Position numbers and translations under genes: made by a program. DNA of 64,000 nt from IMG/VR virus record IMGVR_UViG_3300035675_000001; one strand, written 5' to 3'. This document shows positions 4,834 through 27,382 of the stretch, piece by piece; position 1 is the first letter of the stretch; every line of letters begins with the position of its first letter. Below the pieces are notes generated by a model. That model searched no databases. It was not told the origin of the DNA and saw only the letters and a program-made list of their open reading frames with translations. The DNA comes from a virus (lineage: Duplodnaviria > Caudoviricetes).

Positions 4834-4839
4834 TAACTA
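4834..4839 (-). promoter_or_regulatory. TAGTTA motif (putative late promoter)
   Basis: 7 nt before ATG 4826, no SD in spacer. Confidence 0.6.
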
Positions 4840-8997: not shown

Positions 8998-9082
8998 AAC
9001 TCGCACACCTACCAGAACGGATTGGGAGTAGCCTCCAGTCGCATCTAAGCGCATTACCGATCAATTTGTCATCGCTATAAAC

Positions 9083-9088
9083 CGTTCT
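9083..9088 (+). promoter_or_regulatory. CGTTCT motif
   Basis: 7 nt before sbcD-like ATG 9096. Confidence 0.5.
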
Positions 9089-9095
9089 TCCCTCC

Positions 9096-10133: not shown

Positions 10134-10375
10134 AGAAGTTCATTCCGCTGGCCCTGCTGGCGCTCACCGGGTGCATACCGATGGGTAAGAGCACCCACCT
10201 GGTTCTCGGCGTGGGGGTGTTCCGGGTTCAGAGCACCAATGAGGTCACGGTCGTCAAAGCCAACACCCTGGGGGTCCACGCTGGAGCCGGTCGGTTGAAC
10301 GTCGGCCTGTCCAGCGTCATGACGGCCAGCATCCCAACCAACAGCAACACGATCCTGGAGATCAAGGGTAGATAG
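10130..10375 (+). CDS. Predicted lipoprotein
   Basis: MKKFIPLALLALTG-C signal peptide with lipobox. Confidence 0.7.
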   Translation: MKKFIPLALLALTGCIPMGKSTHLVLGVGVFRVQSTNEVTVVKANTLGVHAGAGRLNVGLSSVMTASIPTNSNTILEIKGR

Positions 10376-10380
10376 AGGGT

Positions 10381-10794
10381 ATGAGAAAGCTGCACATGTT
10401 GCTCATCGGAGCCGCCCTGGCATTGGCTGCCACTGGCTGCCAAGGTCTCAAGTCCGTGGTGACCACGACCCAAACGGGCCTGGGCATCAGCATCTCGGAA
10501 AACCCCTCCACGCAGCTCTACGAAGCTCGCCTGGGCTATTTCCGAAACGAGTTCGCCTTCGTGCCCGGCGACACCAACTGCCCGGCCACGGTGCCTGACG
10601 TGATGATGGAGATTCGCATGGAGAACATCTTCAAAGGCGGTCTCGTCTATCAACGCCTGGCGGTCGGCAAGAACGCAGTCCAGCAGCCCGGCGCTTCGCT
10701 CATGTTCGCCAGGGACAAGGATGGCGGCTTGAACAGCAACGTGGTTGACGCCATCAGCCAAAAGGTCCGCAACATCCCCGAAGCCCCGAAATGA
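10381..10794 (+). CDS. Predicted lipoprotein
   Basis: MRKLHMLLIGAALALAATG-C lipobox; GAGGG SD. Confidence 0.75.
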   Translation: MRKLHMLLIGAALALAATGCQGLKSVVTTTQTGLGISISENPSTQLYEARLGYFRNEFAFVPGDTNCPATVPDVMMEIRMENIFKGGLVYQRLAVGKNAVQQPGASLMFARDKDGGLNSNVVDAISQKVRNIPEAPK

Positions 10795-11727: not shown

Positions 11728-12339
11728 GTGAAGAAAGAGATCGGTTTCATCGCCAGCGAGTCTGGAGCGGTCGTCAAATACGACCCAAAGATTCATGCGG
11801 TCCAGCAGTCTGTGCCGCCAGCGGGTCCGTTGACCAAGCACCAGCGAGCCACGCTTTACTTCAAGGCGCTGCGGGCTGCCAATGCCCTGCTCAGAGAAGT
11901 CGGGTTCCACACCGTAGCCGACGTGGGCCACAGCGGCTTCTGCATCGAGATGGACGGGTTCATCCTGGAGATGATGGTCAAGGAGCCTCCGCGCCTGGCC
12001 CACGTCACCAGCTACCCTGGCTACGAGTATGACCCCAAGAAGATCAACGCCAAGGTCACGATGGCGTGCCCCACCGAGGACAATGAATACGTGATCCAGG
12101 TCATCGCCTCCTACCGGCGCGGGACCATGCCCCCGTTCTACATCGTCGTGGCCAAGGATTCACCCGACGTGCTCAAAGAAGCCTTCCGCAGCATCCTGTT
12201 CGCGGCCCGCGACTTCATCCAGAAAGACCCCAACCTGATGGCAAAAATCCAGGCCGCGATGGCAAACCGCGACCTGGATAAAGACCTGGAACGATTAAGC
12301 GCGGCAGACAAGTTCTTGCCGCCGCCGATGTCAGATTAG
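11728..12339 (+). CDS. Hypothetical protein
   Basis: GTG 11728 preferred (ORF-track start lies inside the terminator); TGTTCT 7 nt upstream. Confidence 0.7.
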   Translation: MKKEIGFIASESGAVVKYDPKIHAVQQSVPPAGPLTKHQRATLYFKALRAANALLREVGFHTVADVGHSGFCIEMDGFILEMMVKEPPRLAHVTSYPGYEYDPKKINAKVTMACPTEDNEYVIQVIASYRRGTMPPFYIVVAKDSPDVLKEAFRSILFAARDFIQKDPNLMAKIQAAMANRDLDKDLERLSAADKFLPPPMSD

Positions 12340-15300
12340 CGTGATCGCCACGTTGACGGCCACGGCCCTTCCTAGCGGCCCATCCGGGCTGGTGTTGAGA
12401 AGGTGGTAGGTGCCAGTGTTCTGGTCCTTGAGCACCAGTCCAGAGCTTCCTCCGCCGTCGAGGTTGATGGCGTTATAGACCTTGTAGTCTTGGATGAGGA
12501 TGTCCGCGATGTCGCCGACTCTCATGCCGCCCTGGCCTCCGCTGGACCCGCTGACGCCTTCCACCACGCAGATAACAAGCGTTTGCTGATCGAGGGTGAC
12601 TCCGGCGACGGTGCGGGCACGGATCAAGTCATACCAGGAGTTGCTGTTGCTGTAGCCGCTGATGGCACTGAGCTGTCCGGCATTGGTGCCGTAAATCGGG
12701 ATCGTCTTGACGCCATTGGTGATGACCTGGGCGCTGCCACTGACCGTGTTTACAAGCTGCATCGCTTCGAGGATGTGCTTGTTGTCACCGAACGCCGGGT
12801 TGCGATGAACAACAGCCGCGTGGAAGTTCGCGTCGAAGTTGAGCGCCGGAGCGTAGGGCAGTATCGCGTAGCTCTGGTTCGGGTATCCGAAGCCGATGGG
12901 CTGCGGCTCGAACGGCGAGAATTTATTCGTGCTCGAAACAGTGAAGCCGACGCTCGCTGCGTTCAAGTCAAAGGACGGGAACGGCAGGAAGAAGTTGCCG
13001 TTGAACGCCAGGTCGGAATAGACCATTTGGGCGAAGTCAAGGGTCGTCTGCCGAACCGTGTCTCGCGTGCCTCCAGGATACGTCACGTAAACATTGGCGT
13101 GGCGCATATCGACCACGGCGATGAACATGCGGGTGCCGTCAGGCAGCGCCCTGGACTCAACAGTCACGCCCTCCTTGGGGACGAAGCTGCCGCTGAAATT
13201 CCACTCCAGCAGGTCAAACGCTGCGCCAGGCTCAGTCCCAGCCCAGGTGTAGATGCCCCCGTCATGGATGACCGTAGCGTAGCGTTCCACTGGAGGCGCA
13301 GCCACGACGATGCGCGTGCCACTGTCCGAAATATAAGCCGAAGGCCAGCGATAGAGGTAGGCATTCTCAACCACCCGCAAGCTGTTGCGCTCGACTTCGG
13401 GAACCCGGTTGGTGGGCGGAGGCGTTCCGTAGCGCACGAGGCTTTGGAACGGATTGGCAGCCAGGATGTGCGGCAGCTCGCCTTCTTCACCAAGCCACAC
13501 ATCCATGTCGCCATTGAATCCCGCGTCCTCGCGCCCTGCGTAAAGTTTGAAGACCAGCGGCCCGGCCAGCGGCGTGTTGCTGCCATACCAGGTCGAGGGA
13601 TAAGGGAGTGCCGGAACTGAATCGTTGATGCCACGGCAGCGCACCAAAACGTATTCTGCGCCTGCCGATTGGACCGTCAAAATGCTGTCAGGATTGATCT
13701 CACTCGCAGTGATGTCCACGGGCAGCGTGCCGTAGAAGCGATACTCGCTGCGGTCAGTCAAACCCGTGAAGCCCACCGAGCGGATCGGAGTCGGGCTGGC
13801 AGGATAGAGAGTCCCTGCCGCGTAAAGGCGGGGCCGTGGCACCCAAGGCTTCCAGGTCACGTTGACCGCCGCCTTCTTGGCATACATGCGGAACGCGAGC
13901 ACGTCTCCGGGCAGAACGTCGATGATGATGTTCCGAATGCCTTGGCGGAGCACAAAGTAAGAAGGCACGCTGTTGCGGTAGCGCACGATTTGCTTTTCGC
14001 TGTCGGCACTGACCGTAATCGACAGCGTGCCTTGGCCCGCGACGCTGAGGAAAGGCTGCTCAGGTCGGTTGGCCGTAATTCCGACAGTCTCCTCGCCCGT
14101 GGTCAACCCATTGATGCCGTCGTTGTAGGTCTCCGGGACGACAGCGAAGAATGGCATCCCATTGTCCACATGGTTCATGTAAACATCCACGTCGCGCTGG
14201 TTCTCCGGGTCACGGTAGCGGAACACCATACCGCCCGAAACGGACCCCGTGCAGATCACATCCTGGCAATCGTAAACAACTTCCACGTCACTGCGGAGCA
14301 CGGGCTGGTAACCAGTCGTGAAGGGCAGGCTGCCGTAGAGGCCGTAGCAGGTGCCTTGGAAGCAGACGTAATCAGGCGGAACAGTCGTGCCGGGGTAAGG
14401 GATCACCAACGGACTGCTGGTGCCGTTGCAAGCCACAAAGCCGTAGGGCACTCCGCACATGCTTCCGTTGGTATAGGCCACATACGGATCGTGCGGCGGG
14501 AACGTGCCGTAGAGCGTGCCGACCCACTCCTCGATCAAGCAGGGATTGCAGTGGCAGAGAGTCACGTTGTCGGCAGGGGCCACGAACGGAGCCGGGTCGT
14601 AGAGCGGCTGAGGAACGTGCATCTTGTGATCCACGTTTTCCTGGCCGTAGCAGAACATGCCCACCGGAGCGCACTTCGGATCGTAGCAAGCCACGATGTC
14701 AGCGACCATCGGGTAGATCGTGCCGGACACGTCAACCGTGTAGGTGCCGCTGGAGCTGGTGGTCGTGCCCATCATCACATCGACGAGGCCAGTGTTGTGG
14801 TAGCACGCGCCGTCGAACCGGGCGAAGGGAGCCGATGTCGTTGAATAGATCGTGCCCTCCAGAGGAACAGGGTCGGGTCGAACAGTGCCCATAGGCCAGG
14901 TGCCCAGGTCAGCGCCAGTTTCGTCCAGCGTCACGATCCCGACCAGGCCATTGTCGATGAAGCAGCCATCAGAAATGTCAACGTCTGCCTCTCCGATCTT
15001 GAGGTAGGTCTCCAGATCAGGACTGAAAGCGTCGGCAGTGATGGGAACACTGACAGTCTCGGTCCCATACCCGCCCGCCGTCAGAAGACGCAGGGTGACG
15101 ACCGTGCCCTGGTTCACAAAGCCATTGGCCAGGTAAACGGCGACTTTCCCGGATACCCGGCGCGGGCGCTGGATGATCGTCGGGTAGGCGGGCATCATGA
15201 ACGAAATTGTAAACGGGCGTGCGTTCTCGATGGCGTAGGTGCTGTTGGCATCCACTTCAAGCACACCTGGAACAGTCGGATCGTAGGACGTGACCCAATT

Positions 15301-16524
15301 CTGGTTCGTGTAGAACATCCGATGCGTCTCGTCAGAAAGGTCTGGCAGGCCATCCAGGCTCAAGGGCATCGGGAGAGTATTCGGGATGTCCGTGCGGTAG
15401 TGCTGGAGCGTCGCCGGGCTGCTGCCCATGCGCTGCTCAGTCGTATCCGTGTCGGTCAGCAGGTCCAGATCGCTGAACACGACCGCAAACCGCCGCGCCC
15501 GCATCCCCGCACCGCCCACCGAAGACGAACCGGGGCACGGCTGGAAAGCGTAAACCTCCTGGCGGTCATAGAAGCACTTGATGCGGATGCGAAAGCGGAA
15601 CGGCAAAATCGGACCAATGTGCGTGGCGAAGCTTTCGGTCGAAAGCTGGAGCCGAATGTCAGCCGGAGCAGGGATGATGAACGTGTTCTCCAGGAACTCA
15701 TACGGCAGGTCAACCGCGCCGGGCGGCTGGCCCAGGACAGACCAGTTGCCGGTTGGGGTTCGGACGAGCACTTGGTCGGGAGGATTGACCGATTCCGGGT
15801 CCAGCTCGACCTGGAAATAGGTCGTGCCCGGCAACAGGTAAATCTCCTCCGCCATCGCGGAAACGGACATTCCGATGGAGGACGAAAACGCAGCCTCGCC
15901 GATCTGCTCGCCGGTATAGACGTAGCCGAGAAACTGCTTGGTCTTGCCTGGCAGCGGGCGCAGCGCGGACTGGACTTCAAAATCACCTGCTACGACTGTT
16001 GAGCTGTCGCCGGTGATGATGTTGTTCTGGAAGTCAGTGATGCGGGCCACGATCCGATAAACGCCGTGGTCAGCGTTCTGGTAGTGGACCTTGTTGGTGT
16101 CTCCCGAAGCCTGCCAAATGCTGTTCCGGTAGAGGTTCCAGGTAACTGATTGGTAGCCCAAGCCTTGCGGGCTGGAAAAGAGGATGTCGGCGTCAATCGT
16201 GTCGCCCTTGGCGTATTTGAGCTGGCTCCAGTTGATCCAGGTCTCTACCGGGCCGGTGGGGTAGCCCATGACCTGGACCGTGAATGCCTGAGTCTGGCTG
16301 GTCGAATCGGGCTTGACCGCCATGACGCTGATGATCGTGGTCACCGGCGAAACCGGCGTGAACACGACCTTGGAACCCGTTCCCTCAGCAATCTTTACCG
16401 TCGTCCAGACAGTCCAAACTGTTTGGAGCGGCACTACCCCGTCAACCAGGATGTCCAGCTCTACCGCAACTCCGGCAGTCAGGATCGGCGGTAACGGATC
16501 GCCATTGAGCGTCAGCGTTATCAT
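12331..16524 (-). CDS. Large virion protein: PKD-like N-terminus, Cys-rich middle, C-terminal phosphodiester glycosidase (NAGPA-like) domain
   Basis: AFNGNFF, ARTVAG, GMRVGDIADIL, AINLDGGGSS motifs; TAGTTA 5 nt upstream (16530-16535). Confidence 0.8.
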   Translation of the reverse strand: MITLTLNGDPLPPILTAGVAVELDILVDGVVPLQTVWTVWTTVKIAEGTGSKVVFTPVSPVTTIISVMAVKPDSTSQTQAFTVQVMGYPTGPVETWINWSQLKYAKGDTIDADILFSSPQGLGYQSVTWNLYRNSIWQASGDTNKVHYQNADHGVYRIVARITDFQNNIITGDSSTVVAGDFEVQSALRPLPGKTKQFLGYVYTGEQIGEAAFSSSIGMSVSAMAEEIYLLPGTTYFQVELDPESVNPPDQVLVRTPTGNWSVLGQPPGAVDLPYEFLENTFIIPAPADIRLQLSTESFATHIGPILPFRFRIRIKCFYDRQEVYAFQPCPGSSSVGGAGMRARRFAVVFSDLDLLTDTDTTEQRMGSSPATLQHYRTDIPNTLPMPLSLDGLPDLSDETHRMFYTNQNWVTSYDPTVPGVLEVDANSTYAIENARPFTISFMMPAYPTIIQRPRRVSGKVAVYLANGFVNQGTVVTLRLLTAGGYGTETVSVPITADAFSPDLETYLKIGEADVDISDGCFIDNGLVGIVTLDETGADLGTWPMGTVRPDPVPLEGTIYSTTSAPFARFDGACYHNTGLVDVMMGTTTSSSGTYTVDVSGTIYPMVADIVACYDPKCAPVGMFCYGQENVDHKMHVPQPLYDPAPFVAPADNVTLCHCNPCLIEEWVGTLYGTFPPHDPYVAYTNGSMCGVPYGFVACNGTSSPLVIPYPGTTVPPDYVCFQGTCYGLYGSLPFTTGYQPVLRSDVEVVYDCQDVICTGSVSGGMVFRYRDPENQRDVDVYMNHVDNGMPFFAVVPETYNDGINGLTTGEETVGITANRPEQPFLSVAGQGTLSITVSADSEKQIVRYRNSVPSYFVLRQGIRNIIIDVLPGDVLAFRMYAKKAAVNVTWKPWVPRPRLYAAGTLYPASPTPIRSVGFTGLTDRSEYRFYGTLPVDITASEINPDSILTVQSAGAEYVLVRCRGINDSVPALPYPSTWYGSNTPLAGPLVFKLYAGREDAGFNGDMDVWLGEEGELPHILAANPFQSLVRYGTPPPTNRVPEVERNSLRVVENAYLYRWPSAYISDSGTRIVVAAPPVERYATVIHDGGIYTWAGTEPGAAFDLLEWNFSGSFVPKEGVTVESRALPDGTRMFIAVVDMRHANVYVTYPGGTRDTVRQTTLDFAQMVYSDLAFNGNFFLPFPSFDLNAASVGFTVSSTNKFSPFEPQPIGFGYPNQSYAILPYAPALNFDANFHAAVVHRNPAFGDNKHILEAMQLVNTVSGSAQVITNGVKTIPIYGTNAGQLSAISGYSNSNSWYDLIRARTVAGVTLDQQTLVICVVEGVSGSSGGQGGMRVGDIADILIQDYKVYNAINLDGGGSSGLVLKDQNTGTYHLLNTSPDGPLGRAVAVNVAITLI

Positions 16525-16543: not shown

Positions 16544-17128
16544 TCACTCCGTGCCCAAAGCGCCGTAGATGAACTGCTGATCGACGAAAACGAGGTCGGT
16601 GCGCTCGATGCTCATGGGGTTGACGCGGCCCTTGTCCGGGAAGACTTCCTGGCCCTTGAAAAACTCGTGCTTCACGTCTTTGCCCCACTGGAGCACGCTG
16701 AAATGCAGGTTTTCCTTCTTGGCCTCCTCTGCATTATCCGGCAGAACGATAAGGCTTTCGTGCCGGACGCTGGGTTCGAGCAACATGAAGCGCCCGACGA
16801 TCTGGAAGGCGTCCAGGGCGATTTCGTCCCGCGTCAGCTTGGCGAGAATGTCCTCAACATGGAGGAAGCAGTTCAGAACGCCCTTGATGTCAAAGGTGAT
16901 GGTCTGAGCGAATGCCTGGGGGAGCTGGAACAGCACAAGGTCGCCCGGCGTGTAAACTTCCTTGGTGCTGTATTTGCCCTCCGGCCCGTAGCCCTCCAGG
17001 GCACCGACCGCGATGACTTCACCGATCTCGTAAAGCTTGGCGCGATTGGGAGGCAAATGGATTGCCCCTTTCAACTTGGCAGCGTGCTGCTTCACCACGA
17101 CTCGACCCGGCATAGCGTTCAATTTCAT
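16544..17128 (-). CDS. groES: Tandem two-domain GroES/Cpn10 co-chaperonin
   Basis: Domain 1: RVVVK..GAIHLP..GEVIAVG..GDLVLF..EDILAK; domain 2: RFMLLEP..LIVLP..VLQWG..GQEVF..QFIYGAL. Confidence 0.75.
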   Translation of the reverse strand: MKLNAMPGRVVVKQHAAKLKGAIHLPPNRAKLYEIGEVIAVGALEGYGPEGKYSTKEVYTPGDLVLFQLPQAFAQTITFDIKGVLNCFLHVEDILAKLTRDEIALDAFQIVGRFMLLEPSVRHESLIVLPDNAEEAKKENLHFSVLQWGKDVKHEFFKGQEVFPDKGRVNPMSIERTDLVFVDQQFIYGALGTE

Positions 17129-17136
17129 ATTCGGGT

Positions 17137-17142
17137 AGAACG
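17137..17142 (-). promoter_or_regulatory. CGTTCT motif
   Basis: 8 nt before groES ATG; TGTAAACA core 11 nt upstream. Confidence 0.5.
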
Positions 17143-17155
17143 CGGTTGAAATTGT

Positions 17156-18211
17156 TTACAAATGTGCTCCGGCTCCGCGCTGGCCAGGGAGGTCGGTGCC
17201 CAGGCGCATAATCTCCCGGTCCACGCTGTGGGGCCTCTCCCGCTCGGTGACGGCGTAGAGCGCAGCATCCACGTCGTCGTTGGCGTCATTGGTCAGCCGG
17301 GCCGTGCCGTCCGCGTTTTTCCCGTGCGGCATCTTGGCAACCGATACAGGCATCACAGAGCTGAGCCGCAGCGCAGTCTCCACGGCCAGGCCGGTGGAAT
17401 CGCTGTCGTAGAGGATGCAAAACTCCTTGATGTGCCGGTAACGCTGAAACTTGGCTACCTGGGACCGGCTGAGACGATGCGTGAAGATACAGACCGGGAC
17501 GATGTGCTGGATGTCCAGCTCCCGCAGCTTGCGGCGGATCGAGAGCGTGTTCAGGATCGACTCGACCACGATTACCAGGCTGATATTCGGGTCGGCCAGC
17601 GCGTCCAGGTTGTAAACCCAGTAGCTCGGCCCATAGGGCACTTCCTTTTTGCTGGGGAACTTCTTGGTGGTCTCGAAGCCCTCGTCGGAGTAGGTGCGGC
17701 CCTGGTAATAGACGCAGCGCACGCCCTCATAGACCGGGAAGATGCAGAAAGGCTCCCAATTTCCTGTCCGCGTGAATCCGGCCCCCGCTTCCTCCAGGTC
17801 TTCGATGCCCAGGTGCTTACGCTCGGCCATGTCCTTGCAGAAACGCCAGTAGCAGCTCTTTCGGTTCTTGGCCAGCGGGCTGAACCCCTCCGGCAGCTCG
17901 ATGTTCTGGACCGGCGTGACCGCCTGCTTCATGTCGCCCCGGAGCGTCTGGCCGAACTCGTCAAACCCGGCGCTGCCATCATCCGTCCAGCTCAGCCCCT
18001 TCAACTTGAACAGGGCGGCAACGTGGTGCGGCTGGGGGTCGTGGCAGCGCCAGCAATGCGACCGTAAGGTCTTGACGTTGATGCTGCGATTTCCCGTTCT
18101 ATCTCCACAGCCAGGCACGGGGCAGACGATGTAGATTTCATCGTCCGTCGTGCGGTCTTTGATGACCTCAAAGACGTTGCCAATCTCGCGTTTGACCCTA
18201 TCCGGCGACAT
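17156..18211 (-). CDS. dnaG: DNA primase (Zn finger + TOPRIM), DnaG/gp61-like
   Basis: CPVPGC..CWRC zinc finger, YYQGR, VVES, YDSD; start ATG 18211 (MSPDRVK). Confidence 0.85.
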   Translation of the reverse strand: MSPDRVKREIGNVFEVIKDRTTDDEIYIVCPVPGCGDRTGNRSINVKTLRSHCWRCHDPQPHHVAALFKLKGLSWTDDGSAGFDEFGQTLRGDMKQAVTPVQNIELPEGFSPLAKNRKSCYWRFCKDMAERKHLGIEDLEEAGAGFTRTGNWEPFCIFPVYEGVRCVYYQGRTYSDEGFETTKKFPSKKEVPYGPSYWVYNLDALADPNISLVIVVESILNTLSIRRKLRELDIQHIVPVCIFTHRLSRSQVAKFQRYRHIKEFCILYDSDSTGLAVETALRLSSVMPVSVAKMPHGKNADGTARLTNDANDDVDAALYAVTERERPHSVDREIMRLGTDLPGQRGAGAHL

Positions 18212-18215
18212 GCTG

Positions 18216-18227
18216 TAGTTAAGAACG
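18216..18227. promoter_or_regulatory. Abutting divergent promoter motifs: TAGTTA (+) and CGTTCT (-)
   Basis: TAGTTA 18216-21 is 12 nt before ATG 18234; CGTTCT 18222-27 is 10 nt before primase ATG. Confidence 0.55.
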
Positions 18228-18233
18228 AAGTTT

Positions 18234-18425
18234 ATGGAACTGAACCAGATGATCGACATTTCGAGGAAGTTCGAGCAGGACCAGCAGCAGGCTGCCATCG
18301 CCCAGGATGGCCAGAACAAAGCTGCGTTCGCCCTGAACTTGATCCAGCGGATGCCGCAAGAACCGACGAAGCCCGAAGAACCGCCGAAAATCCCGTCCCT
18401 GGGAGCCTTGGCCATTCCGAGCTGA
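18234..18425 (+). CDS. Small hypothetical protein
   Basis: 63 aa, 1 nt before GT gene. Confidence 0.65.
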   Translation: MELNQMIDISRKFEQDQQQAAIAQDGQNKAAFALNLIQRMPQEPTKPEEPPKIPSLGALAIPS

Positions 18426-18426
18426 C

Positions 18427-19299
18427 ATGAAACCGCAAGGTGTCTGCATCGTTGCGATGGGTGAGCCATGCTTTGGCGTTTACGCCTACAACCTGGCTGT
18501 CACCATCAAGTTCCGCGACCCCTCCGCACAGATTGCCGTGTTTTACGAGCCGCGCACCCTGTGCGGCCTGGAGCCGCAGGAGATCAATGTCTTTGACGAG
18601 CTGATCGAGCTGGGGCCACGGCACGAATACACCTACCAGGGGCGGATCAATCCCCTGGGATTCAAGCTCCGCGCCCACCTGTTCTCGCCCTTCGAGCGCA
18701 CGATCCTCCTGGACGCCGATAGCGCCTGGTTCGGACCCCGGACGGTGACCTCTTTCTTTGAAAACGAGATGGCCGGGCTGGACTTCGCCACAGTCAGCCA
18801 CGGCGTCAGCCACGCCACGAGGCCAATGGCCCTGGGCAACGTGATCGACCACGGCCCGCTCTGGCAGGTCCAGAAGGCATTCGAGATTCCCGATGGCCGG
18901 ACGATCCATGAGTGCTACACCCAGTGGTTCTACCTGGTTCGGAATGAGCGCACCGAAGCTTTCCTCAAGCGAGCGATCAGCCTTTACGACGACTGCCAGA
19001 TGGGCCTGCGGATGCGCGGCTCGGCCTGGCGCAACTCGGTCGTAAACGATGAGCTGGTCCTGTCCGCCGCCACAGCCCTGTGCGAAATAGCTCCTGGCCG
19101 CATTCCGTTTCATCCCACCACGGACGGCTCGACCAAGGAGCTGACCCCGGAACAGCAAATTGTAAACATTGTCGGCGAGGACACCACGGAGAAGTCCATC
19201 CAGGCGCTCAAGATTTACACCTTCATCACCGACGCCATCCGCGACATCGGTTTCCGCTGGCTGCCTAAGCCGTGGCAGCCAAAGTTTTATCCCTATTAG
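18427..19299 (+). CDS. GT-A fold nucleotide-diphospho-sugar transferase
   Basis: KLRAHLFSPFERTILLDADS (DxD) motif. Confidence 0.75.
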   Translation: MKPQGVCIVAMGEPCFGVYAYNLAVTIKFRDPSAQIAVFYEPRTLCGLEPQEINVFDELIELGPRHEYTYQGRINPLGFKLRAHLFSPFERTILLDADSAWFGPRTVTSFFENEMAGLDFATVSHGVSHATRPMALGNVIDHGPLWQVQKAFEIPDGRTIHECYTQWFYLVRNERTEAFLKRAISLYDDCQMGLRMRGSAWRNSVVNDELVLSAATALCEIAPGRIPFHPTTDGSTKELTPEQQIVNIVGEDTTEKSIQALKIYTFITDAIRDIGFRWLPKPWQPKFYPY

Positions 19300-19990
19300 C
19301 AGCGCGGTCGCGCAGCTCGTGGTAGATCGGCCATAAGGCGTCCGGGCACTTGGCGTCTGTGACGTGCGATAGCTTGGGTTCGATGAAATCCTGGCGGATG
19401 GGGTAACCCAGCAGCGTTTCCAGAAAAGTCATCGCGTTTCCGTTCATCAGCTCGTCGTGCTCGACGTAGAAGAAGGTGCCATCGTCGTTGGCCAGGACAT
19501 GCTGATAAGCGTTGGCCCACATACCCTCCAGTGCGGTCCTCTCGCGTGAAATAGAGGGATGGTCCGCCCGGAGCCGCAGGGCGCTGTCCACGAAATCGGA
19601 AGGATTGCGAAACAGCACGATATTGACGTGCGGCTGAACGAAGAAGGGCTTCCAGGCCAGGTAGGTGAAGGCAAAGCGCGGGTCTTTGAAAGCATACGGC
19701 TGGAACCAGAAGTAACGCCGCATGTTCATCGGCACAGGGAACTTGGCCAGGGGCATCCGCTCACGGGCTTCCAGCGGAATCGGCGCAATCAGAATGCCGC
19801 TGTAGTCGCAGCTTTGTTTCAAAAGCTCGTTGTTCCAGTGGCAGATGTGGTGATCTTCAAAATAGCCGTGTGGCATCTGGCTGGTAGCTCCAACCGGGTG
19901 AAGCCCGGTGAACACTCCTGACTTGGCCAAGGCACCGGCCAGGGCAGACGTGCCGCACCTGCCTGAACCGAAGATAAGACAGTTCCTCAT
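19265..19990 (-). CDS. PAPS-dependent sulfotransferase
   Basis: IFGSGRCGTSALAGAL (5'-PSB), FKDPR, LFRNPSDFVDS (3'-PB), YVEHDELM. Confidence 0.85.
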   Translation of the reverse strand: MRNCLIFGSGRCGTSALAGALAKSGVFTGLHPVGATSQMPHGYFEDHHICHWNNELLKQSCDYSGILIAPIPLEARERMPLAKFPVPMNMRRYFWFQPYAFKDPRFAFTYLAWKPFFVQPHVNIVLFRNPSDFVDSALRLRADHPSISRERTALEGMWANAYQHVLANDDGTFFYVEHDELMNGNAMTFLETLLGYPIRQDFIEPKLSHVTDAKCPDALWPIYHELRDRAANRDKTLAATA

Positions 19991-20637
19991 GACTTATGCA
20001 CTTTCGTTGACCACCCATCACGCACGCAGGCCAGCATTCTCTGGCGCAGACCCTCCAAGCCAACCGGGTTCAGAGCTGCCCAGTAGTGAATCATCCAGGC
20101 GTCCGGCCAGAAGTTGGAGTCCTGGTTGCAGATCAACCACTCCGGGATGAACGAAATCTTGCTGCGGAAATCCGGGAAATAGTGCATGAGGCACTTGATG
20201 GCATTCTGCTCCCAGGTGTCGTGCGTGTCGAACGGATCAGCCGGAACGATGGACCCCAGGTGAGGGAGCATGTCGAACAACGACTTTGACCAGGCGCAGT
20301 TTTTGACCAGGAAAATGCCGAAGCAAACGCCCCACTTATCGAGGGAGACGAGCAGCGGCTTATCCCACGAAAAGGTCTTGACCACATCCTCCAGCTTGAT
20401 GTCGTCGCGCACCATGAGCGCATCGGCATCGAGCCACAGCAGCCAATCACAGTCGTCCATCTGTGAGCGGACAGCGGTGATTTTGTTCCAGGACGCAGGT
20501 TGCTTCGGATTGAACAGCGACCGGTAGCACACGAACTCGTAGCCGTGCTTGAGGGCATACGCCTGGGTTATCGGGGCGCTGATGTCACCCAGCATCGCCC
20601 GTCCCTCGTCGTAGAGCATGACGACTTTTATCTTCAT
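19987..20637 (-). CDS. GT34 (GMA12/MNN10-like) glycosyltransferase
   Basis: SWNKI..DWLLWLDADALM..CFGIFLVKN..WEQNAI; start ATG 20637 (MKIKVVM). Confidence 0.85.
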   Translation of the reverse strand: MKIKVVMLYDEGRAMLGDISAPITQAYALKHGYEFVCYRSLFNPKQPASWNKITAVRSQMDDCDWLLWLDADALMVRDDIKLEDVVKTFSWDKPLLVSLDKWGVCFGIFLVKNCAWSKSLFDMLPHLGSIVPADPFDTHDTWEQNAIKCLMHYFPDFRSKISFIPEWLICNQDSNFWPDAWMIHYWAALNPVGLEGLRQRMLACVRDGWSTKVHKS

Positions 20638-21404
20638 CAGTAGTAGAGCCACTTGGGATGGCGCGATTGAGGCTCGGTCATTTTGCGGGCGACCAGGATC
20701 AAGCACTCCTCGCGGATCACTTCCGGGAAATTGTTGGCTTTCAGGTGATCCATCGTGTGCTGGTCCGTGTCGCTGAAATCCACCGCGTAGTTGCAGCCCT
20801 TGATTTCCACCACCTGGTATCCGCTGGCTTCGGCCAGGTCTTTCAGCTCGCCGGGGGAGTATTCCCTGGCCAGGCGCGGTTCGCCTGAGATGATGTAGTT
20901 GCTGAAAAACCCAGGGTGAAATCCGTTGAGCACCTTCCAAACAGCTTTGATCGAAACCGCGTTGGGCACGGTCAGAATCAGAGTGCCGTTGGTCTTCATG
21001 ATGCGGTTGATCTCATACATCATCCACATCGGATCGCGCTGCATGTGGGGCAGGACTTCGCAGCAGAGCACCGTGTCGAACATCCCGTCGCGGTAGGGGA
21101 AGTTGTCTTTTTCCGCGTCGAAGTAATCCATCTGGCACTGGAACTCTTTGCCCTCGCGGGAAAAGATGCTGGCCGACCGCTTGCCTTTGCCCAGGTAGCA
21201 GGCATAGACATCCTGGTAGCCGCCGAGGACTTTGCAGACGGGGGCCATCTGGAGAAAGCTCCCCATGTCGAGGAGGTTTTTGCCCGGCCCTCCCTCCGGC
21301 ACCTTTTCCAGAGTTCGGAGCATACGGATGCGGTGCCCCTTGACGTAATTCTCCTGATCCTCTGTGTGGGTCCAGTCGATTATCTGAGCCAATTCAAGAT
21401 TCAT
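20637..21404 (-). CDS. Class I SAM-dependent methyltransferase
   Basis: LLDMGS, FPYRDGMFDTVLCCEVLPH, NRIMKTNGTLILTVPN. Confidence 0.85.
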   Translation of the reverse strand: MNLELAQIIDWTHTEDQENYVKGHRIRMLRTLEKVPEGGPGKNLLDMGSFLQMAPVCKVLGGYQDVYACYLGKGKRSASIFSREGKEFQCQMDYFDAEKDNFPYRDGMFDTVLCCEVLPHMQRDPMWMMYEINRIMKTNGTLILTVPNAVSIKAVWKVLNGFHPGFFSNYIISGEPRLAREYSPGELKDLAEASGYQVVEIKGCNYAVDFSDTDQHTMDHLKANNFPEVIREECLILVARKMTEPQSRHPKWLYY

Positions 21405-23689
21405 AGCTTCTGCAAATCGTTGACAATTCCATCATCAAAGAACGCCATCCGGCATCGGCAATCGTTTTCACCGAAGGTGACCAGCCAGCCGTCTGCTGCC
21501 CGAATGGCCCCGCAGGGGAAGATCACGGAGTGCTGGGAGGGCCGGTCGTGCTGAACCGATTCCTCCTCCCCGGCCAGGAGGGGGAACTTGGACATCAGCA
21601 CTGGCTTGAACGGAGGGTGAGGCTCGAAGGCGTAAACGCCGATAAAGTATTGACGGATGGGTCCGTAGGACTCCTCCCGGATGTTGATGCTCGAATGAAA
21701 GAAGGACCAGAGCAGCCCGTCGTGAAGCACCGGCGATGAACCGCCACGCAGCTCGCCCCGTTTCCAGTCGTAGTCGTAGCGGGTCTCGTGAACAAACTTG
21801 GTGGTGTGGTCCTCCAGGTTGACCTCGATGACCTTGTGAGGAGCGATGCCGTAGGAAGCGAACATCCGGCCCTCGGCCTCGAAGAAACACCAGTTCTTCT
21901 CCGGCCTGGTGTGATACCAGGGGCGCTCCAGGTAGAAGCTTTCCGCCGTGGTCATGTCGTCGTTAAGGCGGGCGATCCCGACCTCATGTGCGTCGGTATA
22001 TGTGAGCCAGAGATTTTCTTTGTAAACGAAAAATCTTGGGTCTTCCACGCAGTAGTTGCCAAACTTGGAATGGAGGTCCAGAACCTTGGTGGACTCCAGG
22101 ATCGGGTTCCACTCCCGGTCCAGCTCGCTGACCGCGACCATCGAGAGCCGGAACCAGGGGATACACTCGCACCGGTAGGCCAGGAACTTTCGCCCCTTCC
22201 AGATGGCCAAGCTGGGGTTGAACCAGGCTTCCACCCGGCCCTTCCGCCCGAAGGTCCACTGGATGACGTTGCGCTTCATCGGCGGCGGGATGGGAATGGC
22301 CTGGAGCATCCGGCTCGTCTCGAACAGGTGTGTAGAAGCCATGTCGATGCTCCGGCGCAGCCCATTGATCGTGGCCGGAACGCCGTTGTGGGTATAGAAA
22401 GACTCGAACTTCTTGGGCGTCTCAATGACGTTGATCTCCTGGGCCTGGTGAACCAGTTTGCGCTGGTGCCACTTCTCCTTGCGCCGGGGATTGGGCGGCA
22501 GATGCTTTAGCTCAGGAATGTAAACAAACCTGTCTTGCCCGTAAATCGCGTTGGGCCGCTTGAACTTGCAGTTGGCGAGCTGGGGGTAGGTTTCCTGAAT
22601 CGTGTTGACCTTCAAACCCTCGGCAATGGCGTAAGGGCAGCTCTGATTGCCGATGAACAGATGGCACCCCGCGATCAGCCTGGCCAGCTCCAGCAGGTTG
22701 GCCGTGGGAACGTGCGGGATCAGGCCGTAGTCGGCCACGAAGGAAGCATACTCCTCGCCGGTGCCGACGAACACCATGTCTCGCCGAAATTTGTTTACAA
22801 TCTGGTGCCAGGGGAAGTCTTGATTGCGCCAGCGATGACTGCGGTGAATGACCACGCTGCGCTTGAGGACGATGGGGTCCACGTCCAGCCAAGGCATCAG
22901 ATCATTGAAAAACGTCCCGGCGCTCAGACAGCACGCATCGAGGGACTGCTCCACCAGGTTCTTGCCCAGCCCGCCGAAGTTGCGAAACAGGTTCAGGTCG
23001 TAGTTCACAATCGGCATCTTCTCGACGTAAAAGACCGACTTCACGTAGGGCTGAGCCAGCATGAGCGGAGCGAGGTTCTTCACGACCTTGGGGGACATGA
23101 CCTCCCGCAAATCAGGCTTGGGGTTGAGCCTGATCTCCGGCCCCAGGTAGAAAATGCCAAAGCCCATGACTTTCATGGCGGGCATGGAGTAGATGATGTC
23201 GCCCAAGTTGCCGCTGTGGTAGAGCCTCCAGCCCTTGGGGTCGTGGTTGCCCTCCATGCGCTCGACCAGGCCCACCGCGCCGACTTCCCGTGTCTTCATC
23301 AGGGGCGAGCTGAGGGCCGGATAAGACCTGCGGAAGAATGAGGAGCTGTAGATCGGCTCGTCCATCGCGTGGCGCAGGTCCACCCGAAGAAGCGGTTGGG
23401 TCAGCCTGGCATGGATGCCGAGCACTTCCTGGTGATACCAGAGGCCCGGCGTCCAGATGACGCAGACCTGGCCGCTGGAAATACGCACCCCTGCCGCAAC
23501 CGGTGATTCGCCGTTGCTGGGCTTGACCTGGAGGCCGTCACCGATGTCCTTGTCGAGAAGGTTTACAAAAACCAATTCACGGTGCGGGTGCGTCTGGCGC
23601 TGAAAGCTTTCATGGATGGATCGCAGAGACCCTACGGTCTTCTCATCCACCACCACGATTGTCGAAACCAAGACTGACGCATCTATCAT
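21401..23689 (-). CDS. Multidomain glycan enzyme: degenerate GT2-like + GT9-like + GH130-like beta-propeller
   Basis: HSGNLGDIIYSMPAM; LLELARLIAGCHLFIGNQSCP; FNPSL, VEDPR, EKNWCFF, VIFPCGA. Confidence 0.75.
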   Translation of the reverse strand: MIDASVLVSTIVVVDEKTVGSLRSIHESFQRQTHPHRELVFVNLLDKDIGDGLQVKPSNGESPVAAGVRISSGQVCVIWTPGLWYHQEVLGIHARLTQPLLRVDLRHAMDEPIYSSSFFRRSYPALSSPLMKTREVGAVGLVERMEGNHDPKGWRLYHSGNLGDIIYSMPAMKVMGFGIFYLGPEIRLNPKPDLREVMSPKVVKNLAPLMLAQPYVKSVFYVEKMPIVNYDLNLFRNFGGLGKNLVEQSLDACCLSAGTFFNDLMPWLDVDPIVLKRSVVIHRSHRWRNQDFPWHQIVNKFRRDMVFVGTGEEYASFVADYGLIPHVPTANLLELARLIAGCHLFIGNQSCPYAIAEGLKVNTIQETYPQLANCKFKRPNAIYGQDRFVYIPELKHLPPNPRRKEKWHQRKLVHQAQEINVIETPKKFESFYTHNGVPATINGLRRSIDMASTHLFETSRMLQAIPIPPPMKRNVIQWTFGRKGRVEAWFNPSLAIWKGRKFLAYRCECIPWFRLSMVAVSELDREWNPILESTKVLDLHSKFGNYCVEDPRFFVYKENLWLTYTDAHEVGIARLNDDMTTAESFYLERPWYHTRPEKNWCFFEAEGRMFASYGIAPHKVIEVNLEDHTTKFVHETRYDYDWKRGELRGGSSPVLHDGLLWSFFHSSINIREESYGPIRQYFIGVYAFEPHPPFKPVLMSKFPLLAGEEESVQHDRPSQHSVIFPCGAIRAADGWLVTFGENDCRCRMAFFDDGIVNDLQKL

Positions 23690-25416
23690 ACGCGGACAAC
23701 CTGTAACCCGGCCACATAGCCGACGATTTCAATTCTGATTACGGAGCCTGGAACCACGTCCAGTCCGGTAAAAAGAACGAAGTTGTCGTTCTGTGTCCAC
23801 GAGGTTACCCCGGTCGGGGCGGTCGTCGCGTGAAGGATGGTTCCGCCGTCCACTTGGACGTAGTAGTCCGAACCAGCCGTTCCGAACTTCTGATCGCTGT
23901 AGAGGTAAAGCTGGTAGGTGCCGGGCGGCAGGCCGTGAAGCCGGAAAATGCTGTCGTAAGGAACCCCGCCCATGTCGTAGCCGCCGATCCAGGTCTGGAG
24001 CATCCCGTTCCAGGTCGGGGTCACGCCGCTGTTGTTGACCAGGGGCGCAATGCGCTCCAACCAGATCGGGGTGTCGGTTTGGACCGCATCCTTGAGGTAG
24101 ATGTAGGGCGTGGCGGAATAGGTGAAGCAGACTTCCGGCGCAAAGCTGTAATCGTAACCGCAGAAGCAGTTTCGGTAATCCTTGGTGAACGCCACGGGCA
24201 CGTAGTTGTTCCAATAGTCGCCCGTGGTGCCGACCACGGCAGGCCCCCAGTAGCGAGCGGTGGTGATGCCGTTTTCCAGGTCGAAATCGTCCGTGAGCAG
24301 TGTCGTGGCCGTGGTCAGGTTTTCGAGCGAGATGGAATCCAGGAGCGAGCCGTAAGCCTGGCCAGGGTCCGTTTCCAGCGCGATCTTTCGGAACGAGATT
24401 TTGCCGGTAGAGCCGTCCCCGACGAAATCGACGTAGTAGTCCTGGAACGGCTGCATGTAGTCGGTGATGTCGATGGTCGAATCCACCAGCGCCCCCGCTT
24501 TGTAGTTCAGGATTTCGTGGGCGCGGGCCAGGCGTTGGTTGCCCGCCGCCCGCCAGCTCAGGCGGAACGTCTGGCCGAGAGTGAAAGTGAAAGTGGTCTT
24601 GCTCTCCAAGCGCCCATACCAGCTCATGCTGCCGCCCGCGTTGCCGCTGCCGGACATGTCAATGTAGAGGCCGTTGCCGGGCAGGAAATCGTAGAAGCCC
24701 CGGCCAATCAGATCAACCGAGCCATTGTCCACGACATCCCAGTTGGTGAAATTCGAGTAGCCCAGTGCGCCACGCCCCTCGGTCACAGTGCCGTCGCTGC
24801 CATTGAAGTCGATGTTGACCAGCACCGGCTTCTGATAGCCCAAAATGTTTACAAAATAGTGAATGCCTCCCACAATCACCTGGCGGATGATCGTGGTGAA
24901 GGACCGAGGCAGCCTGTCGGCAGCCTCTTTGATGTAGCCGGTGCGCCCAACCGCGTGCGTGCCGTCCTGGAGCTGGAAATGGCGGCTGACCGAAGCAGGG
25001 TCGTATGCCTTGCCATACCACTTGATCTGGAAGAACAGCTCATCGGTGAGCAGGTAGCCGATGATGTCGCCGCGTTCGACCGGCTGGGCCGTCTGGACCG
25101 CGCAGGTGAGCAGGCCGTGGACCGTCGTCCACACGTCATTGCCGTGGTCAATGGTGATTTCGTAGGTGGGCTGAAAGCCGAGCTGGCTCCCGGACGTGTA
25201 TTTCCAGGTCGGAAAGATGAGCTTGATCGAGATGACTTTGCCCGCGCCCGGAGCGACGCAAGGCTCGCCCGTTTCAAACCGGTAAACGCAGCCCAGGTTG
25301 ACCTCGCCCTCAACGGAGAAGTCTTCCAGCAGGAACAACTTCTTCCGGCTGGGAGGCCGAAGCTTCTGGAGCGTCCATCGCGCTGGCAACTTCAATGGTG
25401 ACAGGTCTGGAATCAT
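23686..25416 (-). CDS. Virion protein with degenerate M23 peptidase-like N-terminus and beta-sandwich domains
   Basis: PCVAPGAGKV..ITIDHG..V.RGDIIGY..ELFFQI..YDP; Zn ligands missing. Confidence 0.65.
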   Translation of the reverse strand: MIPDLSPLKLPARWTLQKLRPPSRKKLFLLEDFSVEGEVNLGCVYRFETGEPCVAPGAGKVISIKLIFPTWKYTSGSQLGFQPTYEITIDHGNDVWTTVHGLLTCAVQTAQPVERGDIIGYLLTDELFFQIKWYGKAYDPASVSRHFQLQDGTHAVGRTGYIKEAADRLPRSFTTIIRQVIVGGIHYFVNILGYQKPVLVNIDFNGSDGTVTEGRGALGYSNFTNWDVVDNGSVDLIGRGFYDFLPGNGLYIDMSGSGNAGGSMSWYGRLESKTTFTFTLGQTFRLSWRAAGNQRLARAHEILNYKAGALVDSTIDITDYMQPFQDYYVDFVGDGSTGKISFRKIALETDPGQAYGSLLDSISLENLTTATTLLTDDFDLENGITTARYWGPAVVGTTGDYWNNYVPVAFTKDYRNCFCGYDYSFAPEVCFTYSATPYIYLKDAVQTDTPIWLERIAPLVNNSGVTPTWNGMLQTWIGGYDMGGVPYDSIFRLHGLPPGTYQLYLYSDQKFGTAGSDYYVQVDGGTILHATTAPTGVTSWTQNDNFVLFTGLDVVPGSVIRIEIVGYVAGLQVVRV

Positions 25417-25425
25417 GTTATCCCT

Positions 25426-26232
25426 CTAAGTAGCTTTCTGTGGTATCTGCTGGATGTCGTCAGCGTAAAACGTGGCAGCCAGCGTCACGACCTTGGCCGT
25501 GTCGTAGGACATTTCGCTGAGCTTGAACGATCCCAGCCAGCACCGGGTCAGCCGGAATTGAGAGGAGAATTGAAGGTCGTTGATGATCGAGTTTGCTCCG
25601 ATAGCCGCAGAAGCCGCCAAGCCCACTGTTTGAATTGTTGAGTAGCCAAAAAGACCGGCCAGGGCGTTTCCCTGCTGGATCAACGCTTGCGCCGGGCCAG
25701 TGTCGAGCACCTGGGGGTCCACCCCGCGCAGGAGCAGCAGTCTCACATCGAAAGCGTAGTCGATCCGGTAGTCGGCGTTGAGCCGGATCGCATACTCGCT
25801 GGACATGGCCCCGCGCCCGGCGCGGACGACTGCTCTCCAGCCGTCAAGCATCTGGTAAACGTCTGATTTGTAGGGGGTAGTGTTGGCTGTCCCGGCGCTA
25901 CCGGCAGTGTAGCAATCCAGGATGAAGGTCATGGAGATCGGTTCCAGGGCTTCGTCCCAGGAGGGGGTGGGGTAGGGCCTGGAATCGCGCCGAATCGGCT
26001 CAGCCCTGGTCTTGAGTTCAGGCAGCGTCACGTTCTGAACAAAGTAGGAAGCCAATTTGGGCGGCAGATAATACGGGGCCAGCCCAGGGGTCATGTCCTC
26101 AGAGCGCGTGAGCATCTGGTTCAAGCCCTGGAGGGCGTCCTTGAAATCAACGATCCACAGGTCAGAGCGTTGAATCTCAACGCCCTTTAGCGTGCCCCAC
26201 GGATTCGTCTGATTGTCGATTACGCTTCTCAC
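25426..26232 (-). CDS. Tail tube-like / baseplate tube initiator (gp19/gp54 family)
   Basis: VQNVTLPEL..ISMTFILD..FKLSEMSYD..LAATFYAD; GTG 26232. Confidence 0.65.
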   Translation of the reverse strand: MRSVIDNQTNPWGTLKGVEIQRSDLWIVDFKDALQGLNQMLTRSEDMTPGLAPYYLPPKLASYFVQNVTLPELKTRAEPIRRDSRPYPTPSWDEALEPISMTFILDCYTAGSAGTANTTPYKSDVYQMLDGWRAVVRAGRGAMSSEYAIRLNADYRIDYAFDVRLLLLRGVDPQVLDTGPAQALIQQGNALAGLFGYSTIQTVGLAASAAIGANSIINDLQFSSQFRLTRCWLGSFKLSEMSYDTAKVVTLAATFYADDIQQIPQKAT

Positions 26233-26236
26233 GCTG

Positions 26237-26242
26237 TAACTA
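26237..26242. promoter_or_regulatory. Shared TAGTTA/TAACTA element between divergent virion genes
   Basis: 4 nt from GTG 26232 (-) and 9 nt from ATG 26252 (+). Confidence 0.55.
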
Positions 26243-27346: not shown

Positions 27347-27366
27347 AAAAGTTTACAAAACTTTCC

Positions 27367-27372
27367 CGTTCT
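27367..27372 (+). promoter_or_regulatory. CGTTCT motif
   Basis: 10 nt before ATG 27383; GTTTAC 10 nt upstream within AAAGTTT-aca-AAACTTT inverted repeat. Confidence 0.5.
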
Positions 27373-27382
27373 ACTGGGGTGT

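Follow-up and report, generated by a model that had tools for sequence, protein, structure and literature searches.

Variable gene islands rich in glycosyltransferases (GTs) are already known from large T4-like phages, and similar cassettes occur in other phages. For the islands of large T4-like phages, the putative target most often named is the host O-antigen, which they are guessed to modify. One such island, the host recognition cluster (HRC), lies within the structural region of T4-like phages and is variable and GT-rich; its published, putative reading is modification of the host O-chain (PMC7029224). A GH130-type gene is likewise known in one large cyanomyovirus (PMC12801897). Here we describe a small island of glycan genes in a stretch of 64,000 nucleotides (the window, meaning the whole stretch that was analysed) from the virus record IMGVR_UViG_3300035675_000001 (Duplodnaviria; Caudoviricetes). 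Between positions 18,234 and 26,242, a baseplate gene leads into a translationally coupled series of enzyme genes that could plausibly make a methylated, sulfated glycan, and comparison with relatives leads us to lean, tentatively, towards a tail or baseplate protein as the acceptor.

Chlorovirus PBCV-1 and Mimivirus-type viruses encode cytoplasmic multi-domain transferases, fused or coupled to methyltransferases, that place methylated glycans on structural proteins; the glycan gene sets of giant viruses are clade-specific, and we know of no sulfation in these systems. Among mycobacteriophages of the Che8, Corndog and Myrna type, mass spectrometry is said to have shown glycans on capsid and tail-tube C-termini, in work reportedly published in Cell Host Microbe. 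That virion glycosylation is established in mycobacteriophages is the account given of Freeman et al. 2023 in PMC12619734 and PMC12801897. In the literature searched, no paper combined GT34 or sulfotransferases with phage particles. The question of what such an island acts on is more tractable here: the island is small, its enzymes are all soluble, and it has one baseplate gene as an anchor and one lectin-like leader protein, which leaves few candidate acceptors.

Results

A coupled series of glycan genes behind a baseplate gene

The baseplate gene and the island lie on the minus strand in the following order.

26237..26242, minus strand: late-type motif TAGTTA; 4 nt separate it from the GTG start codon of the tube-fold gene
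25426..26232, minus strand: tail-tube/Hcp-fold baseplate protein (T4 gp48/gp54 class), 268 residues, assigned with AlphaFold2 and Foldseek
23686..25416, minus strand: degenerate LytM (M23-fold) protein with beta-sandwich domains resembling carbohydrate-binding modules (CBMs), 576 residues, first gene of the island, assigned with Pfam and structure comparison
21401..23689, minus strand: 762-residue three-module enzyme with an N-terminal module (residues 1-150), a GT9-like module (155-395) and a GH130-like beta-propeller (455-758), divided according to the modularity of its homologues
20637..21404, minus strand: class I methyltransferase dependent on S-adenosylmethionine (SAM), 255 residues, assigned with Pfam and a PHROG methyltransferase match
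19987..20637, minus strand: GT34-family GT-A glycosyltransferase, 216 residues, DxD motif LDADA, assigned with Pfam
19265..19990, minus strand: sulfotransferase of the type using 3'-phosphoadenosine-5'-phosphosulfate (PAPS), Sulfotransfer_3-like, 241 residues, assigned from motifs, homologues and Atlas

An earlier note on this DNA, made from the letters alone, had described these minus-strand genes as coupled, and their coordinates and junctions are as it claimed. The TAG of the tube-fold gene is followed by a 9-nt spacer containing AGGGA and then the ATG of the degenerate LytM gene. The four junctions after that are all overlaps: ATGA at 23689-23686 between the degenerate LytM gene and that of the 762-residue enzyme, ATGA at 21404-21401 between the latter and the methyltransferase gene, TGATG sharing base 20637 between the methyltransferase and GT34 genes, and ATGA at 19990-19987 between the GT34 and sulfotransferase genes.

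Of the labels that the note had given to the last three enzymes, those of the methyltransferase and GT34 were borne out and that of the sulfotransferase was supported. The methyltransferase is above the Pfam cut-off for both Methyltransf_11 (PF08241; 32.3 bits against 21.2) and Methyltransf_23 (29.4 against 27), and its nearest curated families are small-molecule O-methyltransferases, matched below threshold. The GT34 enzyme, which has no membrane anchor, matches Glyco_transf_34 (PF05637) at E 4.5e-18 (66.3 bits against a cut-off of 23) and retains its DxD motif. The sulfotransferase has no Pfam or NCBIfam match at E<=0.01 and nothing meaningful in a PDB sequence search. It carries both PAPS motifs, the 5'-phosphosulfate loop (GxxRxGT[ST]) as GSGRCGTS at residues 8-15 and the 3'-phosphate motif (R-x-P-x-D-x-x-x-S) as FRNPSDFVDS at about residues 127-136; PF13469 is present in homologues matched at E 1e-13 to 1e-22, and its Atlas feature score to sulfotransferase clusters is 0.97-0.98 (205 of 256 features at 0.98).

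The note's "GT9/GH130 fusion" survives in part. The 762-residue enzyme is modular, since many of its 4379 homologues (exhaustive search) are stand-alone forms of residues 155-395 or 455-758. The GH130-like module itself scores 21.8-24.6 bits against PF04041 (cut-off 26), and stand-alone homologues about 40% identical to it pass at 29-34 bits. The resemblance to GT9 is sub-threshold: the window module has no hit to PF01075, and 8 of 33 homologues match it only below threshold (E 0.003-0.1, best 0.0028), over profile positions of about 170-206, with GT9-like motifs visible by eye in the middle module. Residues 1-150 match no family, neither the whole enzyme nor a profile of its GT9-like module finds a sequence relative in the PDB, and the enzyme has no protein match among cultured phage genomes. 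The modules of the 762-residue enzyme were assigned from sequence evidence alone. A distant relative of the GH130-like module alone (28% identity) occurs in two unrelated viral contigs, L003 and L004 (at about 9656-10735).

PHROGs assigned no function to five of the seven island proteins. None of the island proteins has a predicted transmembrane segment or signal peptide, and no version of the island contains a flippase, polymerase or priming transferase. In the window sub-clade the island genes are under purifying selection much as the core genes are, with dN/dS of 0.11-0.18 (0.11 for the 762-residue enzyme).

The leader protein and the tube-fold protein

The first gene of the island had been called an M23-like virion gene. 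The M23 fold of its product is real; the zinc-binding and catalytic residues are lost, and the domain is fused to CBM-like modules. The protein scores 27.3 bits against the Pfam M23 cut-off of 28.7. Active M23 metallopeptidases have HxxxD and HxH motifs that provide zinc ligands and catalytic histidines, and the protein has the fold without these residues: throughout the 16-member family, E-L/V-F stands in place of HxH, next to a 6-residue loop deletion (HMMER alignment to Csd3-type M23), and the HxGxD position reads NxGxV (alignment read by eye). An enzymatic role as a tail lysin was therefore rejected, the catalytic motifs being lost. The best structural matches of residues 1-146 are the LytM domains of DipM (VIA Z 15.9) and EnvC (Z 15.4). 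Residues 214-370 match CBM4, an alginate CBM and the Kgp adhesin at Z 9-10 (VIA), residues 218-363 match choice-of-anchor C below threshold (E 2.6e-9), and the C-terminal 190 residues are conserved and beta-rich. Tail and ejection proteins of other phages with known structures also contain M23-fold domains; the structure matches include phi29 gp13 and the cyanophage A4 pre-ejectosome. The gene was found only at the island, and is absent from a 98%-complete island-less relative that has GT2 genes elsewhere.

The middle of this protein differs among relatives. A choice-of-anchor-C-like or CBM4-like domain of about 180 residues (residues 209-385) is inserted in the window sub-clade only and shares 41% identity with part of cellular VWA-domain proteins; P0141, one of the relatives, has two copies of it. 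The inserted domain looks like a recent acquisition.

The gene ahead of the island begins most plausibly at GTG 26232, 4 nt past TAGTTA (26242-26237), the position at which the earlier note had placed the motif. An AlphaFold2 model of its product, with a predicted local distance difference test (pLDDT) score of 75, matches the T4 baseplate-tube complex (5iv5_BG), the KP1 baseplate cup, the AFP cap and Hcp in Foldseek at E 2e-4 to 1e-3; a PDB sequence search returned nothing meaningful. The protein has a variable loop (window residues 171-217) with a median length of 57 residues in lineages with the island and 16 residues in those without (Mann-Whitney p 0.0009), frequently rich in Ser, Thr, Ala and Gln across lineages. 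The longest loop of all (107 residues) is that of L025, where no island follows the gene; in this lineage (L025:4016-6085) the tube-fold gene and the block of primase-like and GroES genes are rearranged and stand back to back.

Presence and content of the island among relatives

Relatives were gathered through homologue look-ups and viral contigs, giving a sample of 24 related lineages. All share a frame in which genes for RNase H, a hub protein and a gp5-like protein lie on one strand and the tube-fold gene diverges from them; facing the tube-fold gene are a convergent ORF (open reading frame) of about 63 residues and then a primase-like gene and GroES. The island, 5-8 kb in size, sits between the tube-fold gene and the small ORF in 12 of the 24 lineages, and in the other 12 there is nothing at this position. 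On a tree of the flanking core proteins its history requires at least five changes, at least four of them forced by well-supported branches; a tree made without the tube-fold protein gives six. Where the island is present, the degenerate LytM gene is always first and the remaining content is lineage-specific, every version combining transferases with a methyltransferase or a radical SAM enzyme. The genes that follow the degenerate LytM gene are:

Window clade: the three-module enzyme, methyltransferase, GT34 and sulfotransferase
L036: GT2/GT9-like fusions, methyltransferase and GT34
L040 and L010: GT4, radical SAM, and FkbM methyltransferase or DUF5672 and GT2
L021: GT4, DUF5672 and a methyltransferase-GT9 fusion

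The earlier note had read the cluster as coupled to a late virion operon. It is indeed tightly coupled behind a baseplate gene, but an island present in half of the lineages and variable among them is better seen as cargo inserted 3'-terminally in a predicted late unit of one gene than as a fixed part of such an operon.

The notion that island-less lineages are free of glycan genes was rejected: GT2 genes were found elsewhere in three of four such records. The 98%-complete island-less record G002 (of lineage L032) has a GT2-type cluster near one record end and two thymidylate-synthase-family genes, one typical and one divergent; together these lie at C1:4303-6566, 215242-215541, 167825-168748 and 171194-171964.

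A late-type motif ahead of structural genes

TAGTTA occurs 10 times in the window against an expectation of 3.45, a count reached in 0 of 100 shuffles, and 8 or 9 of the copies sit 4-12 nt 5' of a start codon. The wider pattern TA[GCT][TA]TA-N3-8-RTG has 13 sites where 2.8 are expected. Those genes of known function that the motif precedes are all structural, encoding a tail fibre, the portal, the tube-fold protein and fibre-like proteins; the sheath gene has TAGATA slightly farther upstream. In the window the motif family is absent before the genes for RNase H, SbcCD, UvsX, GroES and the primase-like protein. The T4-type late promoter is TATAAATA, recognised by a gp55-type sigma; it has no occurrence in the window, where TAGTTA or TA[GCT][TA]TA takes the equivalent place before structural genes. 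Sites of the TA[GCT][TA]TA family on the minus strand lie at 4839, 7822, 8816, 16535, 26242, 35267, 36831, 37166, 38182 and 57029.

The motif is also conserved. TAGTTA stands 4-8 nt 5' of the tube-fold gene in 19 of the 24 related lineages, down to about 30% protein identity; the remaining sites read TAATTA or TACTTA, with one lineage (L033) lacking the motif family. At the 63-residue ORF, relatives have TAGTTA, TACTTA, TATTTA or TAGATA. Distribution and conservation are together good evidence that the TAGTTA-type motif acts as a cis element tied to structural genes. Since it lies 3-8 nt from the start codon, with no room for a Shine-Dalgarno sequence, its position suggests that late mRNAs may have very short leaders or none.

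Within the island there is no TAGTTA-type motif, and a search for sigma-70-like promoters gave 4 weak matches against 3.1 expected, which is no support for one. Read-through from the tube-fold gene would thus be the simplest route of expression.

A second upstream element, CGTTCT(A/T), was seen 7-10 nt before the starts of the GroES, T4_baseplate hub, SbcD and primase-like genes (17129-17165, 27352-27373, 9070-9090 and 18222-18229), preceded by TTTACA at the hub gene, and may mark an earlier promoter class. CGTTCTW is not enriched overall; with two sites in the island, a chance frequency, it was rejected as an island promoter.

The source of the window and the genes facing the island

The window has a G+C content of 59% and encodes a T4-type gp23-like capsid protein, prohead protease, UvsX-like RecA, portal, gp25-like wedge protein and fibres, together with a sheath, a gp5-like hub (Phage_base_V), a T4_baseplate hub protein and RNase H. 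A nucleotide search of cultured phage genomes gave no DNA match, and in a protein search of the same genomes the sheath is only about 27% identical to its nearest relatives. The phage is an uncultured, distant relative of T4, and contigs of 220-260 kb among its own relatives indicate a jumbo phage. The sequencing runs that contain window DNA are DNA runs from wetland, subsurface and soil.

The genes that face and follow the island are these.

19258..19281, no strand assigned: G+C-rich hairpin of 8 bp within the 35 bp that the convergent genes share, with a T-run after it on the plus strand
18427..19299, plus strand: convergent GT8/Nucleotid_trans-like GT-A glycosyltransferase, 290 residues, DxD motif LDADS, optional cargo, assigned with Atlas structure
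18234..18425, plus strand: conserved 63-residue ORF heading the convergent unit, with homologues in relatives with or without the island
18216..18221, plus strand: TAGTTA late-type motif, 12 nt before the 63-residue ORF
12331..16524, minus strand: 1397-residue beta-rich protein resembling an adhesin or fibre; its C-terminal domain is NAGPA (phosphodiester glycosidase; E 2.4e-14), and the gene has its own TAGTTA at 16535-16530

The earlier note had placed the convergent GT-A gene behind a TAGTTA of its own, which does not hold: the motif at 18216 precedes the 63-residue ORF, and the GT-A gene is an optional insertion, present in L005 and L014 and absent from the closest relatives (L001, L002 and L007). 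Its product matches Pfam Mannosyl_trans3 weakly (E 0.0048), and its Atlas structure has template modelling (TM) scores of 0.62-0.84 to clusters of GT8 and nucleotide-diphospho-sugar transferases.

Beyond the small ORF lies the primase-like ORF (17156-18469, minus strand), a PHROG DNA primase with no Pfam match. Its longest form, of 437 residues, overlaps the 63-residue ORF on the opposite strand; the protein has 351-355 residues in relatives, which fits an in-frame ATG at 18211, and with that start the two genes would diverge from points only 22 nt apart. The GroES-like gene (16544-17128, minus strand) adjoins it throughout the clade and encodes 194 residues, about twice the usual length, with Pfam Cpn10 covering residues 3-97 only. 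After GroES a giant ORF follows in each of the three island lineages for which this region is available, and in 0 of 7 island-less lineages: the 1397-residue NAGPA protein in the window, a protein of 1246 residues in L010, and one of at least 678 residues with a Calx-beta domain in L040.

Discussion

A proposed glycan for the tail or baseplate

What might the island make, when, and on what acceptor? We infer a late event in the cytoplasm. Transcription would start at the TAGTTA-type late motif and continue beyond the tube-fold gene to take in the island, whose genes are translationally coupled. Supplied with host nucleotide sugars, the transferases would build a short oligosaccharide on a cytoplasmic acceptor, and the methyltransferase (with host SAM) and sulfotransferase (with host PAPS) would cap it. 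Genome-wide gene absences were checked in G001, a relative that is 96% complete and bears the same island; it has no ThyA-family, APS (adenosine-5'-phosphosulfate) kinase, epimerase or NTP-transferase gene; lacking the last three, it must draw on host donors. The enzyme set plausibly fits the methylated, sulfated product that the earlier note had proposed, as judged from the families present.

The acceptor would most likely be a concurrently produced protein of the tail or baseplate. Candidates are the tube-fold protein at its extended loop, the giant adhesin-like protein and the degenerate LytM protein itself, which would serve as a structural partner or glycan binder and not as a peptidase. 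Because enzyme content changes among relatives, the outcome would be lineage-specific tail glycans. Late cytoplasmic glycosylation of a tail or baseplate protein is the reading that we favour, at somewhat less than an even chance. The comparative signals (a tube-fold neighbour, a lectin-like degenerate LytM protein and a giant adhesin-like protein) point to a tie with the tail or baseplate and not with DNA metabolism; the earlier note's glycan coat over the whole virion is an over-reach. A more specific version, which we regard as speculative and rather unlikely, is a tail-tip glycan module in which the degenerate LytM protein and the tube-fold loop would carry or hold the methylated, sulfated oligosaccharide, with a lineage-specific chemistry acting in host recognition or in shielding the tail tip.

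Several observations weigh against a tail or baseplate acceptor. Soluble enzymes of the GT9 type and sulfotransferases can use lipid-linked host glycans at the inner face of the membrane without phage exporters, and the degenerate LytM protein is a candidate virion component only. The link between loop length and island is not significant with phylogenetic correction (4 independent contrasts, none opposite; sign test p 0.125-0.5); two island-less lineages, L023 and L025, have long loops, and the window's own loop is not rich in Ser and Thr (0.13 against 0.15 in the rest of the protein). GT2 genes elsewhere in island-less relatives show that glycan genes also occur outside this site, and make the contrasts between presence and absence less clean. 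Late timing is deduced from the motif alone, the function of which is itself predicted, and no RNA run contains window DNA among the sequencing runs matched.

Alternative targets

The serious rival is remodelling of the host envelope, which we nevertheless judge unlikely: the soluble enzymes would act on lipid-linked precursors of lipopolysaccharide (LPS) core, O-antigen or exopolysaccharide at the cytoplasmic face, the host would export the products, and the altered surface would block superinfection or keep progeny off debris. The GT9-like module resembles the heptosyltransferases of the LPS core, and these GT9 enzymes are peripheral and cytosolic. The island varies among lineages as host surface glycans do, and an envelope target is the published reading for the GT-rich variable islands of T4-like pelagimyophages (PMC7029224) and cyanomyophages (PMC12801897). 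Set against this, no version of the island includes a membrane protein, flippase or bactoprenol-linked transferase, and a gene set placed behind a late-type motif would leave little time for surface turnover before lysis. A lectin-like degenerate LytM leader without a signal peptide also sits better with the features of virion-type proteins, which the island tracks. An acceptor unrelated to the particle seems improbable. Here the GH130-like module would be a phosphorylase in the catabolism or salvage of host mannosides, and the other enzymes would act on a soluble metabolite or a host protein, in a takeover or auxiliary metabolic function. Phosphorolysis of beta-mannosides is the activity for which GH130 enzymes are best known, the GH130-type gene of the large cyanomyovirus is annotated with it (PMC12801897), and the sub-threshold matches of the methyltransferase to small-molecule families agree with such a role. 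In the window, however, the GH130-like module shares its polypeptide with transferase-like modules, and three further tailoring enzymes are coupled to it, which suggests assembly over breakdown, and the GH130-type fold also serves in transferases, namely those of GT108. The fixed position of the island, its lectin-like leader and its co-variation with virion-type proteins would be left unexplained.

Hypermodification of the phage DNA, with a tailored glycan on modified bases evading restriction, is in our estimate very improbable, in agreement with the earlier note, which had set DNA modification aside. Jumbo T4-like phages often modify their DNA, and the decoration of DNA with diverse glycans by phage GTs is established, from the T4 alpha- and beta-glucosyltransferases and from Pyle et al. 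2024 as cited in PMC12619734. The island-bearing relative G001 lacks a gene of the thymidylate-synthase family, a possible source of a hydroxymethylase, which argues against sugars on hydroxymethylated bases; an island-less relative has two such genes. The predicted late class is unsuited to a modification needed during replication, and the genes that accompany the enzymes are those of a baseplate protein and a lectin-like protein, not those of nucleotide metabolism. We know of no report of DNA glycans that are sulfated or built by GT34 or GH130 enzymes.

Comparison with known systems

Should the product of the island prove to be on the tail, virion glycosylation would extend from mycobacteriophages to T4-like jumbo phages, with sulfation added, which would matter for phage adsorption, for stickiness in the environment and for recognition by antibodies. 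The tail-tip module, if true, would provide the first demonstration of a sulfated glycan on the particle of a tailed phage, and would make a glycan, not a protein, a host-range determinant in T4-like jumbo phages. Whichever the target, the pattern of cassettes repeatedly gained, lost and exchanged at a single site is useful for annotation. What is new here is the fixed site behind a gp48/gp54-class gene, the invariant lectin-like degenerate LytM leader, the combination of GT34, GH130-like and sulfation chemistry, and a short, testable list of acceptors.

The likeness to the mycobacteriophages lies in soluble phage GTs beside structural genes, some with an O-methyltransferase; those of mycobacteriophages modify virion proteins in the cytoplasm with host sugar donors, whereas the island is known from its genes alone, and the adjacency to structural genes is shared. 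The island differs in its families (GT34, GT9-like and GH130-like), in its sulfotransferase, in its degenerate LytM leader and in its site at the baseplate of a T4-like jumbo myovirus. PBCV-1 and Mimivirus-type viruses resemble it by general description and are eukaryotic viruses with unrelated structural proteins. The leader itself is closest to degenerate LytM factors (EnvC, NlpD, DipM and SpoIIQ), which are the best matches to its residues 1-146 (Z 14-16) and have likewise lost zinc-binding and catalytic residues. These are periplasmic or membrane-anchored regulators of cell-wall amidases or parts of channels; unlike them, the phage protein lacks a signal peptide, its LytM domain is joined to CBM-like domains, and its gene stands behind a baseplate gene.

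Like the HRC and the hypervariable islands of pelagimyophages and cyanomyophages (PMC7029224; PMC12801897), the island is non-syntenic and GT-rich and lies in the structural region, radical SAM cassettes come and go, and genes for fibres or adhesins are adjacent. Variability and GT content are thus shared; the location is not. The HRC occupies 34-45 kb between VrlC and gp14, together with tail fibres, whereas the present island takes up 5-8 kb between a gp48/gp54-class gene and the block of primase-like and GroES genes, and the invariant degenerate LytM leader is a feature of this island and not of the HRC.

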